NCBI GenBank assembly: GCA_002688775.1
Contig: NZDH01000004.1
Coordinates: 123,420-187,419 of the forward strand
Direction of reading: 5' to 3'
From: Candidatus Woesearchaeota archaeon
GTDB taxonomy: Archaea > Nanobdellota > Nanobdellia > Woesearchaeales > GW2011-AR4
DNA: 64,000 nt
The notes beneath the pieces were generated by a model that worked only from the letters and a program-made list of their open reading frames with translations, made no database searches and was not told where the DNA came from. Positions 15,884 through 52,909 of the stretch are shown here, piece by piece. The position numbers were made by a program, and so were the translations under genes. Within the stretch, counting starts at the first letter, position 1; each line of letters opens with the position of its first letter.

Positions 15884-15984
15884 GCGCCGGTAGCTCAGCT
15901 TGGATAGAGCGTCTGAATTCATTGACGAACCTCCTATTCTTGGGTGAGAGCAGAAGGTCGGGAGTTCGAATCTCCCCCGGCGCG
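15884..15984 (+). tRNA. Class-I tRNA with a 26-nt intervening sequence in the anticodon arm; anticodon unresolved (only TCA or TGA possible)
   Basis: Acceptor GCGCCGG/CCGGCGC, D arm GCTC-AGCTTGGATA-GAGC, variable AGGTC, T arm GGGAG-TTCGAAT-CTCCC. TATA-like TTTATAAA lies about 30 nt upstream. Confidence 0.8.
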
Positions 15985-25248: not shown

Positions 25249-25328
25249 AATTCTAATAAATAGGCGAGCCATTGAGCGAGCCTAACTTTTGCCGAAGGTG
25301 GGTTTAATAATTATTATCATTAATTATT

Positions 25329-25453
25329 GAAAATTAGTCGCATATACATTACTGATTTGTTCACAAACACTTAATGAATTATTTGTGCACTCATTTCTTC
25401 TGTATTGTACTGGGCCCCTAATAACAATGAAAAAATCAAAATTTTAAAAATAA
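25329..25453. repeat. Intergenic repeat family R1, copy A
   Basis: Shares AAATTAGYCRCATATACATTA, TTCACAAAC, TCATTTCTTCNGTATTGTACTGGGCYC and AATAACAATGAAAAA blocks with 36710-36887 and 42821-42986. Confidence 0.75.
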
Positions 25454-25469
25454 TAAAAAACCAAAAAGA

Positions 25470-25594
25470 AAAAAATGTGGCCCATTGCTGAGCCACCGCT
25501 TGCCTTCATATTAAAAACGTTGGGGGTGGTTTTCTTAATGAAGGCAAAGAAACAATCTCACCACAAAGACTAAAGGGGTGATCGTGAGTTTTGA
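25470..25594 (-). ncRNA. GC-rich, three-hairpin region directly downstream of the ftsZ stop, ending in an oligo-T tract (candidate sRNA or structured 3' UTR)
   Basis: Sense strand: CTCAC-GAT-CAC...GTG-GTGAG, then TGCCTTCAT...ATGAAGGCA, then GTGGC...GCCAC, followed by ATTTTTTTCTTTTT. Partial similarity to the element at 11333-11400. Confidence 0.35.
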
Positions 25595-26695
25595 TTATTG
25601 CCTAACTAATTCTATTCCCAGCTCTTCACTGACAGCAACTGCTTCCGGTGATGGTTTTGAGTAATCAACTTTGCCAAGTATCCAAGGGCTTTTTACTCCA
25701 GTCACAATGGTCATTACTGTTATCCTTCCTTTCATATCATCTTGGACTCTGGCACCCCAGATTACATTTGCATCCTGGTCTAAACTTTCAGTTACCATCT
25801 CTCCTGCCTTGTTGATATCTTCCAGTGTCATGTCAGGGCCGCCGACAATATGGATCAATGCGCCTGTTGCACCGGCATAATCTACTTCAAGCAGAGGATT
25901 TGCTAACGCTCCCTTTACAGCTTCCTCAACTTTGCTGTTAGTGTCAGAAGATCCAACTCCTATCGCTGCAACTCCTCCATTCTGCATGATTGCTTTTACA
26001 TCAGCGTAGTCCAGATTGACAAGTGATGGAACTGCGATTGTTTCCACAATTCCCTTGATCATTGTTGCAATTAATTCATTAGCAACTGCAAAAGCATGTT
26101 GTATTGGGAGATTTCCTGCAATTTGAACTAATCTATTGTTGTCAATTACAATAACTGTGTCTGTTACTTGCCTTAATTGCTGCAGTCCAAATTCTGCCTT
26201 GTCAACTCTAGCCCTTTCTATCTTGAAAGGCATTGTGACTGTTCCAATTACAATAGCTCCTGTGTCTTGTGCAAGATGCGCTACAATCGGTGCACTTCCA
26301 GTTCCTGTGCCACCGCCCATTCCAGCGCAAACAAAAACCATGTCAGCTCCTTTTAGAGATTCTTTTAACTCCGGCAATGATTCTTTTGCTGCTTCAGCCC
26401 CCTTTTCAGGAAAACCGCCGCATCCCAGACCGCGAGTTACACCTTTTCCAATCAAGAACTTACGATCAGCATCAATTATTGTAAGATGCTGCTTATCGGT
26501 GTTGCATGCTATTATTTCAGCGCCTTTTATACCTTTTTTGTAGAGCCATCCAACCATGTTGTTGCCAGCTCCACCAGCGCCTAAAACTTTTATATTTGCC
26601 CGGCCAACTTCAAATCCCAAGCTTGTATCCTTTAACTGATTTACCGCTCCTTCTACCAAAAAGTCCATTTTTATCTCCCCCTTTTCCCCAGCCAT
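25595..26695 (-). CDS. ftsZ: Cell division GTPase FtsZ
   Basis: GAGGAGNNMV and the tubulin signature GMGGGTGTGSAP. 366 aa. Confidence 0.96.
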   Translation of the reverse strand: MAGEKGEIKMDFLVEGAVNQLKDTSLGFEVGRANIKVLGAGGAGNNMVGWLYKKGIKGAEIIACNTDKQHLTIIDADRKFLIGKGVTRGLGCGGFPEKGAEAAKESLPELKESLKGADMVFVCAGMGGGTGTGSAPIVAHLAQDTGAIVIGTVTMPFKIERARVDKAEFGLQQLRQVTDTVIVIDNNRLVQIAGNLPIQHAFAVANELIATMIKGIVETIAVPSLVNLDYADVKAIMQNGGVAAIGVGSSDTNSKVEEAVKGALANPLLEVDYAGATGALIHIVGGPDMTLEDINKAGEMVTESLDQDANVIWGARVQDDMKGRITVMTIVTGVKSPWILGKVDYSKPSPEAVAVSEELGIELVRQ

Positions 26696-34449: not shown

Positions 34450-35618
34450 TTTATTATTGTAATTTCCTCTTCAATGATATTTTTTGTTTTTTCTTTGATA
34501 TTTTTATCAATTGAAAGAATATCATTTAAGCCTGGATTTTTAATTATATTATGCTCATCCATCATTTTTCTGATCAATCTTGGAATGTCCAGAAATCTTA
34601 TTTTATTGTCTAAAAAGGCATGGACTGCAGCTTCATTTGCAGCATTCATTACTGCCGGCAGTGTTCCGCCTTTGATTCCTGCTTCATATGCGTAGTTCAA
34701 GCATGGAAACATATCAAAATCAGGATCTTTGAAGTCGAGAGTCTTTATTTTTGCAAGATCCAGTGATGCCTGCATATTAGTAAATCTTCCTGGATATGTT
34801 AATGCATACTGGATGGGTATTCTCATGTTTGGCAATCCAAGCTGCGCTATGACTGACCTGTCATTAAATTCAACCAATGAATGTATGACGCTTTGGGGGT
34901 GAATGACAATTTTGATTTTTTTATAATCAATCCCGTAAAGCCAATGTGTTTCAAGAACCTCAAAACCCTTGTTCATGAGAGTTGCGCTATCAATTGTTAT
35001 CTTTGCACCCATATTCCATGTTGGGTGCTTGAGAGCATCACTTGCTGTGACATCTTCAAATTGTTCTCTTGAATGATTTCTAAAAGGTCCTCCTGAACAG
35101 GTTAATGTTATTTTATTGACATCGTTGATATTTTCTCCGTTTAAGCATTGGAAAATTGCACTGTGCTCGGAATCAATAGGCATCAATTTTACATCGTTTT
35201 TCTTTATCTCATTTATGATGGCGGAACCTGCTGCAACTAAAGTTTCTTTGTTTGCGAGCGCAATATTTTTTTTGTTTCTGGCAGCATTGTAAGTTGGTTC
35301 AATACCAACAGAACCGACCAGAGAATTTACAACAGTGTCTGCCTCATTTAAAGCTGCAATTTTGTTTAATCCTTGAATTCCAGAATAAACTTGTGTAGAA
35401 GTGAAATTCATCAATTCGTTTGCTTTTGTTTTATCCATTACAGCAACTGCTGCCGGCTTAAATTCGTTGATCTGCTGCCTTAATAAATCAATATTTTTAT
35501 TTGTAGTAAGGCCAACAACCTTGAATTCATCAGGAAATTGTTTTACTATGTCCAAAGTCTGCGTGCCGATACTGCCTGTCGATCCCAGAATTGATATGTT
35601 TTTCATTTTAATTGCCAT
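34446..35618 (-). CDS. dxr: 1-deoxy-D-xylulose 5-phosphate reductoisomerase
   Basis: ILGSTGSIGTQTLDIV, LANKETLV, PIDSEHSAIFQC and HPTWNMG motifs. Confidence 0.95.
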   Translation of the reverse strand: MAIKMKNISILGSTGSIGTQTLDIVKQFPDEFKVVGLTTNKNIDLLRQQINEFKPAAVAVMDKTKANELMNFTSTQVYSGIQGLNKIAALNEADTVVNSLVGSVGIEPTYNAARNKKNIALANKETLVAAGSAIINEIKKNDVKLMPIDSEHSAIFQCLNGENINDVNKITLTCSGGPFRNHSREQFEDVTASDALKHPTWNMGAKITIDSATLMNKGFEVLETHWLYGIDYKKIKIVIHPQSVIHSLVEFNDRSVIAQLGLPNMRIPIQYALTYPGRFTNMQASLDLAKIKTLDFKDPDFDMFPCLNYAYEAGIKGGTLPAVMNAANEAAVHAFLDNKIRFLDIPRLIRKMMDEHNIIKNPGLNDILSIDKNIKEKTKNIIEEEITIIK

Positions 35619-36669
35619 TGCTGGCTATTTCATTGATTTCTTTTAATAGAACCTCTTTTATCTCATTATCGTTAATTCTTTTGACAATTTTACCATCTCT
35701 ATATAGGAGATGATTTCCTGGAGCCCCTACAATCCCAATGTCTGATTTTTTGCTTTCCCCGGGGCCATTAACTGCGCATCCCATGACGGCAACCTTAATC
35801 GGTTTTTTTATTTTTTCCGTTTGGTTTTCAAGCTCTTCAACCAATTTGATCACATCTATTTCTGTTCTTGCACATGTTGGACAACTTGTAACTTGAACGC
35901 CATCATTTCTTAATCCAAGTGACCTTAAAATGTATTTTCCGACTTTTACTTCTTCTTTTGGATCTTCAGAAAGCGAGATTCTTATCGTATCGCCAATGCC
36001 TTCAGAAAGCAGCATTCCTATGCCCATTGAAGACTTTACAGTTCCAGGAATTTTTGATCCTGATTCTGTAACTCCTAGATGCAATGGGTAATCTGTTTTT
36101 TCAGCAAATGATCTATACGCTTCCACCATTCTCGGAACATCGGATGCTTTTAATGAAACAATTGTATCATAGAAATCCAAATCTTCCAGAATTTTAAGAT
36201 GGCGCATTGCACTTTCAACCATTGCTGCAGGCGAATAACCATGTTTCATGAACAAGTCCCTTTCAAGGGAGCCAAGATTTACACCGATTCTCATCGGAAT
36301 TCCATGATCTTTTACTGTCTTGACAACTTGCTGCACTTTATCCGGATTCCCTATGTTGCCGGGGTTGATTCTTAGTTTATCGACGTATTTTACTGCCTCC
36401 AAAGCAATCCTGTAATCAAAATGTATGTCAACAACAAGCGGAATCGTGATATTTTCTCTAATTTCCTTTAATGATTTCGCTGCTTCCATTGTCGGAGCGC
36501 TTACTCTTATTATTTCGCATCCCACATCTTCCAATCCGTGAATCTGGTCAATAGTTGCTTTAACATCTGTTGTATCTGTTGTTGTCATTGACTGAACAGT
36601 TATCGGTGCATCTCCTCCGATGAATAATTTTCCAACCTTGACTTTGCGTGATTTTCTTCTTTGTAGCAT
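35608..36669 (-). CDS. ispG: 4-hydroxy-3-methylbut-2-en-1-yl diphosphate synthase
   Basis: GGDAPITVQSMT, RINPGNIG, SCPTCART and VMGCAVNGPGE motifs of GcpE. Confidence 0.95.
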   Translation of the reverse strand: MLQRRKSRKVKVGKLFIGGDAPITVQSMTTTDTTDVKATIDQIHGLEDVGCEIIRVSAPTMEAAKSLKEIRENITIPLVVDIHFDYRIALEAVKYVDKLRINPGNIGNPDKVQQVVKTVKDHGIPMRIGVNLGSLERDLFMKHGYSPAAMVESAMRHLKILEDLDFYDTIVSLKASDVPRMVEAYRSFAEKTDYPLHLGVTESGSKIPGTVKSSMGIGMLLSEGIGDTIRISLSEDPKEEVKVGKYILRSLGLRNDGVQVTSCPTCARTEIDVIKLVEELENQTEKIKKPIKVAVMGCAVNGPGESKKSDIGIVGAPGNHLLYRDGKIVKRINDNEIKEVLLKEINEIASNGN

Positions 36670-36709: not shown

Positions 36710-36887
36710 GATTTTAATAGTTTTTTATATTATTTTTATTATTTAATTTCTTTTAATTTTATTATTGGAGATTAGCCGCATATACATTAATTATTAATTC
36801 ACTAACAATTTAACAATATTTTTTAATTCGTTTCATCTGTAATGTACTGGGCTCTTAATAACAATGAAAAACTATTTTAAAAAATAA
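36710..36887. repeat. Intergenic repeat family R1, copy B (between the dxs stop and the ispG start)
   Basis: Same conserved blocks as copies A and C. Ends are inverted-repeat-like: GATTTTAATAGTTTTTTAT versus ATGAAAAACTATTTTAAAA. Confidence 0.75.
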
Positions 36888-36940
36888 ACCAACCCCTTTT
36901 TAATAATAAAAAATATTTCTAAAAAATTAAAATCTTAAAA

Positions 36941-38839
36941 TTATTCCTTCTTCAAAATTTCCACAATTGCTTTCTTTATACTTTCTTTATCGATTCCTGC
37001 AAGCTTTTTCTGTATGTCGGGCTTGCCATGATCTATAAACTTGTCAGGAATCCCTATTCTTTTTACATTAGCTTTTATTCCATTATCTTCCAGCAATTCC
37101 AATACTGCAGATCCAAATCCCCCATTAATTGTTCCTTCTTCCAATGTGATAATATTTTTTATTTTATTAGCATATTTTAATATCACTTTTTCATCAAGGG
37201 GCTTGACGAATCTTGCATTAACAATTGTTGCATTGCATTTGAGTTCTTCAACAGCATACATGGCATCATACAAAATAGGGCCTACGCCTAGAATCAATAA
37301 ATCACTGCCTTGTTCCAGTATTTCTGCTTTTCCGATTTCAAGCTCTCTTAATTCCGGATCTAAGCCAACACCAATACCTCCACCTCTGGGATATCTTAAG
37401 GTTGAAGGCCCTTGCAGTAAAGTAGCTGTGTAAAGCATATGCTGCAATTCGTTTTCGTCTTTTGGAACCATAATTGTAATATTTGGGACTAATCTGAAGT
37501 AAGCAATGTCAAATGGCCCATTATGGGTTGGGCCGTCATCTCCAACTAAGCCTGCCCTGTCCAAAGCAAATATCACTGGGAGATTTTGCAAGCATACATC
37601 GTGGATTATCATGTCAAACGATCTTTGCAAGAAAGTCGAGTATATAGCACAAACTGGTTTCATTCCGTTGATTGCTAGGCCAGCTGCAAATGTGACGGCA
37701 TGCTGCTCTGCTATCCCTACGTCAATTGTCCTGTCTGGAAAGTGTTTTTCAAATTTATTTAATCCAGTACCGGCCTTCATTGCTGCTGTTATGGCAACAA
37801 TTTTTTTATCTTCTTCTGCAATTCTTATCAAAGCATTGGCAAATGCGTCTGTATATGTAATGTTTGTGGATTTAACATATTTCTGGCCATTGATGGGGTC
37901 AAAGGGAGACATGCCATGGAATTTGTCCAGATCTTTTTCTGCAAATTCATATCCTTTGCCTTTTTCTGTTTTTACATGCAATAAAACCGGACCTTTCAAA
38001 TTTTTTACATTTTCCAGTGCAGTAATCAGCTCGTCAATGTTATGGCCGTCAATCGGTCCGAAGTATTGAAAGCCAAGGCTTTCAAAGAAAATTCCTTCGC
38101 TGTATATATTTCTCAGTCTTTCCTGTGCTTTGAAAACTTTTTCAAGTTCTTGTTCCCCAATTCCTGGGATTTTTTTTAATAAATTCCTTGTTCTTTTTCT
38201 TAATTGGAAATATTTTGGATTTAGAACAATCTTATTCAGATAATTAGAGATAGCACCGACATTTGGAGAGATGCTCATTCGGTTATCGTTTAAGATAACC
38301 AGCATGTTTGTTTTAGAAGCGCCTAGATTGTTTAATCCTTCAAAAGCCAGGCCAGCTGTCAATGCTCCATCTCCAACAATTACAACAACTTTATCATCTT
38401 CATTTTTGTAATCTCGGGCTTTTGCAATTCCCAGGGCTGCTGAAATTGAAGTTGCTGCATGACCTGCTCCAAAAACATCATATTCTGATTCTGAAATATT
38501 GCAAAAACCACATACGCCTTTGTACTGCCTTAAAGTGTGAAAATTATCCCTTCTTCCTGTAATAAGTTTGTGTGGGTAACTCTGATGTCCTGTGTCTATA
38601 ATGATTTTGTCTTTTGGTGCATCAAATATATAATGAACTGCCAGTGTCAGTTCAACTGCCCCTAATGGACTGCCCAAATGACCGCCTGTTTTTGAAACTA
38701 CATTCAGGATTTTACCTCTTATTTCCTGTGCAAGAACTTTAAGCTGGTCTTTGCCCAGTTTCTTAAGGTCATTTGGGAAATTAACTTTATCAAGAAAACT
38801 AGTCTTTTCTAGATGGTCCTGTTGTTGCATTAAACACAC
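36941..38839 (-). CDS. dxs: 1-deoxy-D-xylulose-5-phosphate synthase
   Basis: TGGHLGSPLG, the TPP motif GDGALTAG...NDN and the transketolase-like C-terminal domains. 632 aa. Confidence 0.95.
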   Translation of the reverse strand: MCLMQQQDHLEKTSFLDKVNFPNDLKKLGKDQLKVLAQEIRGKILNVVSKTGGHLGSPLGAVELTLAVHYIFDAPKDKIIIDTGHQSYPHKLITGRRDNFHTLRQYKGVCGFCNISESEYDVFGAGHAATSISAALGIAKARDYKNEDDKVVVIVGDGALTAGLAFEGLNNLGASKTNMLVILNDNRMSISPNVGAISNYLNKIVLNPKYFQLRKRTRNLLKKIPGIGEQELEKVFKAQERLRNIYSEGIFFESLGFQYFGPIDGHNIDELITALENVKNLKGPVLLHVKTEKGKGYEFAEKDLDKFHGMSPFDPINGQKYVKSTNITYTDAFANALIRIAEEDKKIVAITAAMKAGTGLNKFEKHFPDRTIDVGIAEQHAVTFAAGLAINGMKPVCAIYSTFLQRSFDMIIHDVCLQNLPVIFALDRAGLVGDDGPTHNGPFDIAYFRLVPNITIMVPKDENELQHMLYTATLLQGPSTLRYPRGGGIGVGLDPELRELEIGKAEILEQGSDLLILGVGPILYDAMYAVEELKCNATIVNARFVKPLDEKVILKYANKIKNIITLEEGTINGGFGSAVLELLEDNGIKANVKRIGIPDKFIDHGKPDIQKKLAGIDKESIKKAIVEILKKE

Positions 38840-39137
38840 CCCTTAAAAATTGAAGTTTTTCAAGGTTTATAAAACTTTTCAATGTATATATAGAAAATAA
38901 AGAATAAGTGCATGTCAAAAACCAACAGACAATTTTGTCCCGTTTCATCGAAAATATAACATAATTGACAACAACATTGGACTTATGTCCATCAATCAAA
39001 GACTGATGGTATATTTTCGACATATAAAAAGAAAATGTTCGAAAATCCTACTGCTTTAGAAGATTTCCGTCACACTTCTTAGCATGTTTCGCATTTGTCT
39101 CCGCCTTTCATGAATTCCACCTCCATATGATTAAAAT

Positions 39138-42614: not shown

Positions 42615-42803
42615 TTACTTAGATTGGGTATTAAAAGTGGTGTATCTGCAAGATCCACATGTTTCCCTATTACCATGCTTTGCCATGAAAGTTCCAGAGC
42701 CGCATTTTGGGCATGACTTGTTTTTTCTTTCAAGCTTATCGCCGGTTTTATTATACATATTCCATCTTCCTGATACTTTTTTCTTTTCTTGAGGTTTTGC
42801 CAT
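42615..42803 (-). CDS. rps27ae: 30S ribosomal protein S27ae (eS31)
   Basis: 62 aa zinc ribbon, CPKCGSG...CGSC, with a basic N-terminus. Confidence 0.9.
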   Translation of the reverse strand: MAKPQEKKKVSGRWNMYNKTGDKLERKNKSCPKCGSGTFMAKHGNRETCGSCRYTTFNTQSK

Positions 42804-42820
42804 TTTTATTTATTTTTTTT

Positions 42821-42986
42821 ATTTTAATGGTTTTTTATCTTTATTTAATGAGTTTTTCGTCAATGGAAATTAGCCACATATACATTAATTATTTCTTCAC
42901 AACCACATACACAATCGTTTGTGTACTCATTTCTTCAGTATTGTACTGGGCTCCAAATATCAAATAAAAACTATTTTTTAAAAATA
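42821..42986. repeat. Intergenic repeat family R1, copy C (between the rps24e stop and the rps27ae start)
   Basis: Same conserved blocks as copies A and B. It splits the normally adjacent rps24e-rps27ae pair. Confidence 0.75.
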
Positions 42987-42987
42987 A

Positions 42988-43470
42988 TTATTTCTTATCC
43001 CCTTTCTTTTGTTCTTTTGCTTCCTTCTTGACTTCAGTCTTTTTTGGCGCTTCTTTCTTTTCAGCTGCTGATTTTTCTTGTTTTGGTGCTGGTTTAGCGT
43101 CTTTAGTCTCTTTCTTTTCCTCTTTTGGCTTTTCTTCTGTTTTCTTAGTTTCAGCCGGCTTTTGCCCTTCTTTTTTCTCTTCTGAAGGTTTTGATTCTTT
43201 TTGCTTCTTTATTTTCGGCTCAATCAATATTTTTTTCTTTTCATCAGTATAAACATAGGCTATAACATTAGCCTTTTTATTTCCAAAAGAAGTGTAAATA
43301 TGCCTAACTGATATTAATTTCTCGTCTTTTTTAAGGTTTGATGCTATCAGGGAAATAGTTTCCTTGTTAGAAGGAGTTGCATTATCAAATTCCAATGTAG
43401 CATTAATCAGTTTTCTTGACAATAATGGCTCTTCCTGTTGTTTTGTAATATTTAATTGCAAAGAAATCAC
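42988..43470 (-). CDS. rps24e: 30S ribosomal protein S24e with a Lys/Glu/Pro-rich C-terminal tail
   Basis: The N-terminal 95 aa or so are S24e-like (EPLLSRKLINATLEF...HIYTSFG). The tail has about 65 aa of KKEEK/PKEEKK repeats. Confidence 0.9.
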   Translation of the reverse strand: MISLQLNITKQQEEPLLSRKLINATLEFDNATPSNKETISLIASNLKKDEKLISVRHIYTSFGNKKANVIAYVYTDEKKKILIEPKIKKQKESKPSEEKKEGQKPAETKKTEEKPKEEKKETKDAKPAPKQEKSAAEKKEAPKKTEVKKEAKEQKKGDKK

Positions 43471-44860: not shown

Positions 44861-44992
44861 AGAAAAATTCCAACAACAAAGGGTTCAAATACGGGTTTTC
44901 TTCGTGAAAACCCTATTCGCAAAGGAAAAATCCGAACTATGTAACGGATTTTCCCTCTGCACTCAATTTTCACCCATTGTTGGAATTTTTCT
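44861..44992 (+). ncRNA. Three-way-junction RNA, copy 1 (unclassified family; second copy at 63414-63546)
   Basis: Closing stem GAAAAATTCCAACAA/TTGTTGGAATTTTTC and hairpins GGGTTTTC/GAAAACCC and GGAAAAATCCG/CGGATTTTCC. Junction strands match copy 2 while the helices covary. 3' T-tract. Confidence 0.65.
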
Positions 44993-50088: not shown

Positions 50089-50199
50089 GACCGCGGGCGA
50101 GAATCGAACTCGCGCCAAGCGGATTTCAAAGCAAGATGACAACCCTAAGTTGCAACCAGCTACCACAACCGCTTATTCTACCATTAAACTACCGCAGTC
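50089..50199 (-). tRNA. tRNA-His (anticodon GTG) with encoded G-1 and a 39-nt intron after position 37
   Basis: Sense strand: G-1, ACTGCGG/CCGCGGT acceptor, anticodon stem AGCGG/CCGCT, loop TTGTGG|intron, T arm GCGAG-TTCGATT-CTCGC, discriminator C. Confidence 0.85.
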
Positions 50200-52801: not shown

Positions 52802-52909
52802 GCGGGGGTGGCAGAGCCTGGCCAAATGCGCAAATTCATGATAAATGGAGTGGATGGTTGAGGGCCTTGTCCCTTAGTGGGTGCGAGGGTTCGAATCCCT
52901 TCCCCCGCA
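52802..52909 (+). tRNA. tRNA-Leu (anticodon GAG) with a 22-nt intron at non-canonical position 29/30
   Basis: Class II tRNA. Acceptor GCGGGGG/CCCCCGC, variable arm TCCCTTAGTGGGTGC. Removing 52834-52855 yields CAAGG-TTGAGGG-CCTTG. Confidence 0.85.

Follow-up and report, generated by a model that had tools for sequence, protein, structure and literature searches.

A lineage-specific, non-coding intergenic repeat with terminator- and promoter-like signals in a Woesearchaeota genome

The window analysed here is a stretch of 64,000 nt (C3:123420-187419, where C3 is the contig) from a 1.04-Mb Woesearchaeota MAG of 19 contigs, with 36% G+C and a completeness of about 73%. It holds three copies, named A, B, and C, of an intergenic repeat that we call R1. 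As the initial annotation had described, all three follow closely on the 3' end of a minus-strand gene, at distances of 141 nt (A), 54 nt (B), and 3 nt (C), and the neighbors named there were recovered by Pfam searches. Copy A is located between ftsZ, 141 nt upstream in the sense direction, and a convergent nitroreductase gene, whose 3' end it faces. Copy B lies between the stop codon of dxs and the start of ispG, with the minus strand being the gene-sense strand. Copy C fills the spacer between rps24e and rps27ae, and its tail begins at the S24e stop codon. The features are listed below, and the three parts of copy B are given separately.

25298..25456, minus strand: R1 copy A, with a truncated arm (nhmmer E 3.3e-33)
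25595-26695, minus strand: FtsZ (Pfam)
35608-36669, minus strand: IspG/GcpE (Pfam)
36711..36895, minus strand: R1 copy B, the flagged copy, as a whole element whose extent was set by the copy at C1:68994 (nhmmer E 8e-31)
36711..36766, minus strand: A-rich arm of copy B, sense AATAATAAAATTAAAAGAAATTAAATAATAAAAATAATATAAAAAACTATTAAAAT, common to the C1:68994 copy
36767..36854, minus strand: core of copy B, about 88 nt, delimited by alignments of the copies (palindromy z=3.65)
36855..36895, minus strand: T-rich tail of copy B, sense GGTTGG-TTTATTTTTTAAAATAGTTTTTCATTGTTATTAA, with a 5' boundary conserved across copies
36941-38839, minus strand: Dxs (Pfam)
42615-42803, minus strand: S27a (Pfam)
42804..42990, minus strand: R1 copy C, filling the rps24e-rps27ae spacer (nhmmer E 9.5e-34)
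42988-43470, minus strand: S24e (Pfam)

Two of these neighborhoods show additional features. Between the ftsZ stop codon and copy A (25455-25594, minus strand) lies a unique, GC-richer sequence of about 120 nt with three predicted hairpins (-40.6 kcal/mol), which ends in GTGGCTCAGCAATGGGCCAC followed by T7 and resembles a bacterial-style intrinsic terminator; the genome has one copy of this sequence, and Rfam gives no match to it. The S24e protein next to copy C has 160 aa, about 55 of which form a C-terminal extension rich in Lys, Glu, and Pro; in congeners it has about 97-110 aa.

A profile HMM was built from copies A, B, and C and used to search the whole genome with nhmmer. All three copies were found again at the E values listed above, and about 21 further matches at E<1e-6 were identified across 14 contigs of the genome. 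After dropping a match on a duplicate contig and merging one split match, the genome contains 23 unique copies of R1, so that the family extends well beyond the three copies first described, and all of them (23/23) are intergenic. The refuting outcome set out in the initial annotation, which included a lack of further copies, therefore does not apply. The duplicate arises from redundant assembly: C18 at about 27.2 kb and C2 at about 58.7 kb are identical over an R1 copy and its flanks, which would raise the count by one. With about 190 bp per copy, R1 occupies about 0.4% of the assembled DNA, a noticeable investment in a compact DPANN genome. Copies A, B, and C align with a mean column identity of 75%, and their likeness is genuine and far above chance. 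From copy to copy, core identity ranges from 57 to 89% (median 74%). The closest pair consists of copy B and the C1:68994 copy, which are located on different contigs and are 94.5% identical over 165 nt; this pair is recent. The C1:68994 copy also looks like a mosaic, in which the tail and a nested insert resemble the copy at C10:31389 and the core and arm resemble copy B, and it may have arisen by recombination between R1 copies.

R1 is read here on the gene-sense strand, the reverse complement of the strand used initially, because it shows a strong bias in orientation relative to the neighboring genes. With a length of about 185-230 nt, the element extends beyond the ordered blocks listed first, and alignments identify those blocks as the conserved blocks of the entire family. 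Briefly, three regions can be distinguished. All pairwise alignments start about 40-45 nt upstream of AGTACAATAC, which gives the element a sharp, conserved 5' boundary. The tail often opens with a G-rich patch followed by TTTATTTTTTAAAATAGTTTTTTATTGTTATTAAGAG, holds two T5-6 tracts, and in most copies begins 0-50 nt past a stop codon. The core spans 88 nt from GAGCCCAGTACAATACAGAAGAAATGAGTGCACAAATAATTCATTAAGTGTTTGTGAAC to ATCGTTATTGTATATGTGGCTAATCTCC; in copy B it runs from GAGCCC AGTACAWTACAGAAGAAATGA through a central CACAAA/TTTGTG to GTTAWTGTAT.TG.GGCTAATCTCC. The central CACAAA/TTTGTG stem, noted earlier in the window, is found in most copies of the family, with 68% of cells paired. The arm is A-rich and built from recurring modules such as AAAACTCATTAAATAA, AAAAATCCAATCAAAAAA, and AAAATAGAAAAAATAA; it is kept even beside a convergent gene and is therefore part of the element.

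The conservation of R1 is uneven along its length, with a variance-to-mean ratio of 2.98 per site against 0.81 expected. The blocks AGTACAATACAGAAGAAATGA, CACAAATAATT, GTTATTGTAT, and GTTAWTGTAT are near-invariant, and AGTACAATACAGAAGAAATGA, CACAAATAATT, and GTTAWTGTAT are kept among variable positions even in the most decayed copies. This pattern may reflect sequence constraint or subfamily structure. The left arm had been described as roughly the inverted complement of the right end, and the symmetry itself is genuine: when the element is aligned with its own reverse complement, the score reaches z=3.9 over its full length (0/300 shuffles as high) and z=3.65 for the core (3/1000 shuffles as high). 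R1 is thus an imperfect palindrome, and the left arm that mirrors the right end consists of an A/T-rich promoter-like or T-tract motif. The ends are A/T-rich and of low complexity, the pair GGTTGG...CCAATC was seen by inspection in only about half of the copies, and crisp terminal inverted repeats were not found in the R1 copies.

The position of R1 relative to genes is far from even. In 20 of the 23 copies the tail adjoins a 3' gene end, in 17 of 23 the arm end faces a gene start, and the copies between co-directional genes are split 15:1 in orientation; a rough binomial estimate is about 5e-4 for each of the two biases (20/23 and 15:1). The genes downstream of R1 have unrelated functions, including BatA/VWA, T2SSE ATPase, PurH, PPAT, PTH2, DHFR, IspG, and S27a, and a common regulon was ruled out on this ground.

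To describe the signals within R1, we used a promoter weight matrix (PWM) learnt from 891 upstream regions of the genome. The genomic promoter is a BRE/TATA motif, cRAAA-NN-TTTAWA, in an 18-nt window; among 261 strong cases, 95 have this window beginning precisely at position -42 relative to the ATG, and this fixed position indicates that most mRNAs would be leaderless. Matches to the matrix that face outward occur in the arm of 18/23 R1 copies, and weaker outward matches occur on the opposite strand of the tail in 11/23, while no site in the 23 copies points into the core from either side. Only two of 19 genes downstream of R1 have a canonical promoter at -42/-43; for the remaining ones, the promoter-like sites fall within the arm, between -30 and -75. 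In copy B, the arm carries the promoter-like site AATATAAAAAACTATTAA (9.8 bits), 62 nt from the ispG ATG and off the canonical -42 position, and the opposite strand of the tail carries the promoter-like AAAAACTATTTTAAAAAA. The arm is a putative promoter for the downstream gene. Oligo-T is a termination signal for archaeal RNA polymerase, and for this reason we infer that the tail is a putative terminator of the upstream gene, which in copy B would be a predicted oligo-T terminator of dxs. Across the genome, the 8-mers most frequent immediately past stop codons are T-runs, among them TTATTTTT and TTTTTAAA, both of which occur in the R1 tail.

A second palindromic repeat family, with units of 57-67 nt and at least 15 copies or fragments in the genome, interrupts three of the R1 copies. 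In two R1 copies of different subfamilies, this nested repeat sits at one common site, TTATTA|AGAGCC, and compensatory changes distinguish one insert from the other (TCAAAAACC/GGTTTTTGA versus TCGAAAACC/GGTTTTCGA). The following members were located.

C10:31217-31283: nested-repeat family, outside the window
C1:69097-69163: nested-repeat family, outside the window
C1:31992-32048: nested-repeat family, outside the window
C8:51859-51916: nested-repeat family, outside the window
About 38913-38942 (C3:162332-162361): related fragment in the window

The distribution of R1 is narrow. BLAST with the R1 consensus found it absent from 24 congeners and 16 other genomes of the order; matches to the tail in relatives proved to be coding low-complexity sequence and were rejected. 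A sequence-only covariance model gave no credible R1 in 300 genomes of the order, and weak profile matches in four genomes of the order were attributed to chance. A 19-base conserved word of R1 gave only five bacterial chance matches among GTDB representatives, and a 16-base word gave only chance matches in IMG/VR, none of which fits the R1 profile. In metagenomes, every contig on which the 19-base word led to a full R1 copy matches the genome at 99.9-100% identity. Among the genomes and databases searched, R1 is restricted to one species. The host, whose genome derives from Tara-type ocean samples, forms a marine population that is widespread and near-clonal: six S27a contigs from different samples were compared over 2 kb that include copy C, and five of them are 100% identical there, with a single differing base in the remaining one. 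No presence/absence polymorphism was found among these six conspecific contigs at copy C. The conspecific contigs are identical or nearly so, and therefore movement of R1 was never observed; we infer from the sequences that the element may be mobile.

Several marks of mobility were searched for. The longest match between the two flanks of an R1 copy averages 7.0 nt, compared with 6.6 +/- 1.1 nt for mismatched flank pairs, and no target-site duplication rises above this shuffled-pairing control. Neither Y1 (PF01797) nor DDE_Tnp_1 (PF01609) transposases were matched in the assembled 73% of the genome, and among the nhmmer matches no partial R1 ends were found to bracket an ORF. A partner transposase could lie in the missing part of this 73%-complete MAG. 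A single TnpB-like ORF is present on C6 at about 10.6-11.8 kb (about 396-400 aa; PF07282, 69 bits); its locus has no R1-like ends, although an R1 copy sits 5 kb away.

Intergenic palindromic repeats are well known as a class, and R1 shares features with several of them. Like the MITEs of Sulfolobus (SM1-SM4), Neisseria (Correia/NEMIS), pneumococcus (RUP), and enterobacteria (ERIC/IRU), it is short, non-coding, AT-rich, and an imperfect palindrome. As in other prokaryotic MITEs, tens of intergenic copies are dispersed in one lineage with an orientation biased by transcription, terminator- and promoter-like signals are carried, and other elements are nested inside. The initial annotation had suggested a MITE, and the multiple copies, intergenic location, and inverted symmetry agree with this suggestion; the target-site duplication, sharp terminal inverted repeats, and cognate IS or transposase of such elements were not found with R1. 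In duplications and partner transposase, R1 falls outside a strict definition of MITEs. R1 also resembles the REP/BIME/REPIN sequences of RAYT systems and the PATEs of IS200/IS605 in lying extragenically just past genes with a biased orientation, in lacking target-site duplications, and in being species-specific and palindromic. In contrast to REP/REPIN sequences, whose unit is a GC-rich hairpin of about 20-40 nt, R1 measures about 190 bp, with an AT-rich core of 88 nt and no stable GC-rich hairpin; unlike RAYT-associated REPs, it is accompanied by no Y1/HUH gene in the assembled 73%, and the ends of the TnpB locus are unrelated to it. R1 is therefore not a member of the REP/RAYT class on the hairpin unit and on RAYT. 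A further parallel comes from halovirus HF2: one report (PMC8707807) describes AT-rich intergenic repeats of 29-58 bp with promoter activity shown by reporters. R1 is likewise an AT-rich intergenic repeat of an archaeal genome with promoter motifs, and it differs from the viral repeats in being cellular and longer, with a palindromic core, a terminator-like tail, and promoter motifs that are predicted.

On balance, we lean towards R1 being a lineage-specific, non-coding insertion, dispersed in the manner of MITE/REP elements, with termination and promotion of transcription as side-effects. Such an element would have multiplied in one Woesearchaeota lineage, either selfishly or after secondary co-option. 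Its tail would end the upstream transcript at the T5-6 tracts directly past the stop codon, and the BRE/TATA-like motifs of the arm would supply or reinforce the promoter of the downstream gene. The core would form the main body, which may be recognized during copying. The orientation bias may then result from selection, if only copies that terminate inward and promote outward are tolerated in a compact genome; alternatively, it could stem from an orientation-specific insertion mechanism.

The orthologous junctions in relatives of the host provide further information. Most of them are without R1, which agrees in part with the empty sites proposed for comparison earlier, but these relatives are too diverged to give a clean empty site. 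At dxs-ispG, the genomes G006 and G011 and two metagenomic relatives (loci L129 and L130) have a single-copy spacer with the shared motif AATGCG.TG.GAAAGA. These four lineages share the spacer, and therefore the R1-bearing state in the present genome (G000) is derived, which would fit either insertion or replacement. The nearest other IspG among 5.8 billion proteins is 90% identical, and the spacers of the next relatives (IspG identity of 90% or less) contain neither R1 nor the repeat family described below. The source names of IspG homologues place the host in the Woesearchaeota (DPANN). In its cross-species form, the spacer motif reads (T)AATGCG-N-TG-R-GAAAGA-W-A; it is lost where R1 (G000) or the other repeat family (G001/G002) occupies the junction, and it may act in cis on the MEP cluster. 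At the ribosomal protein junction, the rps24e-rps27ae pair had been regarded as normally contiguous. This does not hold for the genus, in which congeners have spacers of 65 nt and about 200 nt, the former in G011.

The genome G001 contains about 20 copies of a different intergenic repeat family, here R-alt, which is also present in G002, G011, and G013. R-alt lies directly past stop codons and consists of a T6-G-A6 palindrome, a small hairpin, and then AAGAAGCAC...ACATTAACTAAAGGATAACTT. The 5-bp hairpin GCCYY/RRGGC shows compensatory changes (GCCTT/AAGGC, GCCCT/AGGGC, GCTCT/AAAGC; GCGC/GCGC in G002), and this small covarying hairpin in congeners is reminiscent of REPs. Two examples, from the loci L077-L090, are as follows.

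G001:C9:95882-96084: R-alt copy
G001:C9:88343-88539: R-alt copy

The 3' ends of 16 R1-flanking genes were mapped on G001 as one concatenated query. At four of about 16 R1 junctions (dxs-ispG, S24e-S27a, thyA-folA, and one more), R-alt immediately follows the orthologous gene and is oriented like R1, compared with a rough expectation of 0.2-0.8. The remaining 12 of about 16 junctions have no R-alt in G001. Random insertion does not predict this sharing, which needs a strong site preference or the replacement of resident elements. The shared junctions with this sister-species family would be either insertion hot spots or places where the family that dominates locally displaces the elements already there. 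R1 and R-alt have in common the entry motif T6-(G/A)-A4-6-TA-(A/G)-T5-6-ATTG and A-rich exits, and their consensus sequences align at z=3.1; the likeness is weak and lies mostly in the A/T-rich ends.

These observations raise the question of whether R1 is a selected module, that is, a terminator-insulator-promoter cassette kept at operon junctions and homogenized within each genome by gene conversion or replacement. The equal orientation of R1 and R-alt at the four shared junctions, their common T-tract entry and A-rich ends, the mosaic C1:68994 copy with its hint of recombination, and the uneven per-site conservation all point in this direction, as does the scarcity of canonical -42 promoters among the downstream genes (2 of 19), which leaves these genes possibly reliant on the arm. 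However, most relatives have a unique dxs-ispG spacer and G011 has a short S24e-S27ae spacer, and therefore the module is not a conserved requirement of these two junctions. The spacer variant of G006 at dxs-ispG does not belong to a multi-copy family in that genome, most R1 junctions have no R-alt counterpart in G001, the likeness of the two families is weak, and no R-alt relics were found in G000 at a significant score. We regard the selected module as rather unlikely. The broader form of this idea, in which particular junctions of the genus are long-term homes for interchangeable selected cassettes and species-specific families turn over without transposase or duplication, is also unlikely in our judgment; under it, all cassettes would begin with the common T-tract palindrome, end A-rich, and act as terminator-insulator-promoter modules instead of ordinary junk MITEs.

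A second possibility is that R1 represents genes of small non-coding RNAs, or a cis-acting RNA in operon transcripts, with the core as the functional RNA. Its core does combine conserved blocks with an inverted-repeat build, its orientation is fixed relative to genes, and it sits between the operon partners dxs-ispG, S24e-S27a, and thyA-folA, where a read-through RNA would include it. Some changes also appear compensatory, such as TACAATA/TATTGTA to TACATTA/TAATGTA (three rows) and AGCC/GGCT to AGTC/GACT. Against this, RNAalifold returned no consensus structure for the R1 copies on either strand, and the fold z-scores of single copies average about -1. In three specified helices, 76.8% of cells pair, compared with 74.9% in shuffles, and the covariation score of 0.100 compares with 0.083 in shuffles, 49/500 of which score as high. 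Pairing and covariation do not stand out from shuffles, and thus the inverted repeat is a property of the conserved sequence rather than a selected fold; R1 as a structured RNA was rejected, and the long hairpin proposed initially finds no covariation support. With gathering thresholds, Rfam 15 gave no R1 match anywhere in the window, and a search of copy B at E<=10 yielded nothing beyond noise (E>7). No promoter-like site is directed into the core, though the promoters of this genome are very regular, T-tracts precede the core in both directions, and conservation does not extend beyond one species. On structure, promoter, and conservation, R1 does not qualify as a small-RNA family, and we consider an RNA function very unlikely.

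Related candidates were set aside as well. The absence of a conserved ORF, noted at the outset, applies to the whole family: indels are present, the ATG is not conserved, and inspection of the copies revealed only frames of 7-15 aa, so that a protein-coding role was ruled out. ARAGORN finds no tRNA or tmRNA in the copies, which excludes such an origin. No box C/D or H/ACA motifs were found in R1 by eye, and a kinship with the structured RNA family at 44861-44992 was dismissed, as the sequences are unrelated.

Finally, we judge it highly improbable that the core serves as a recurring DNA site to which some protein binds, for instance a regulator, a recombinase, or a nucleoid or chromatin protein, and owes its retention to primary sequence rather than to mobility: near-invariant blocks do persist in the most decayed copies, the two-fold symmetry suits a dimeric binder, and a core between a predicted terminator and a predicted promoter would be untranscribed DNA, but the flanking genes form no common regulon, only one species has the repeat though such a protein would be expected in congeners, subfamily structure could also explain the uneven conservation, and no candidate protein was found.

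If R1 is a dispersed insertion and its tail and arm work as their motifs suggest, a selfish repeat would have re-wired operons by separating dxs from ispG, rpS24e from rpS27a, and thyA from folA. The downstream gene may thereby gain a non-canonical promoter in an otherwise rigidly leaderless organism. R1 also marks its species cleanly and causes breaks in the assembly of such MAGs.

Apart from R1, the Rfam search identified an archaeal RNase P in the window. It also gave tRNA matches of 100-110 nt at 15884-15984, 50089-50198, and 52802-52909, for which ARAGORN makes no call; these three tRNA genes presumably bear introns.
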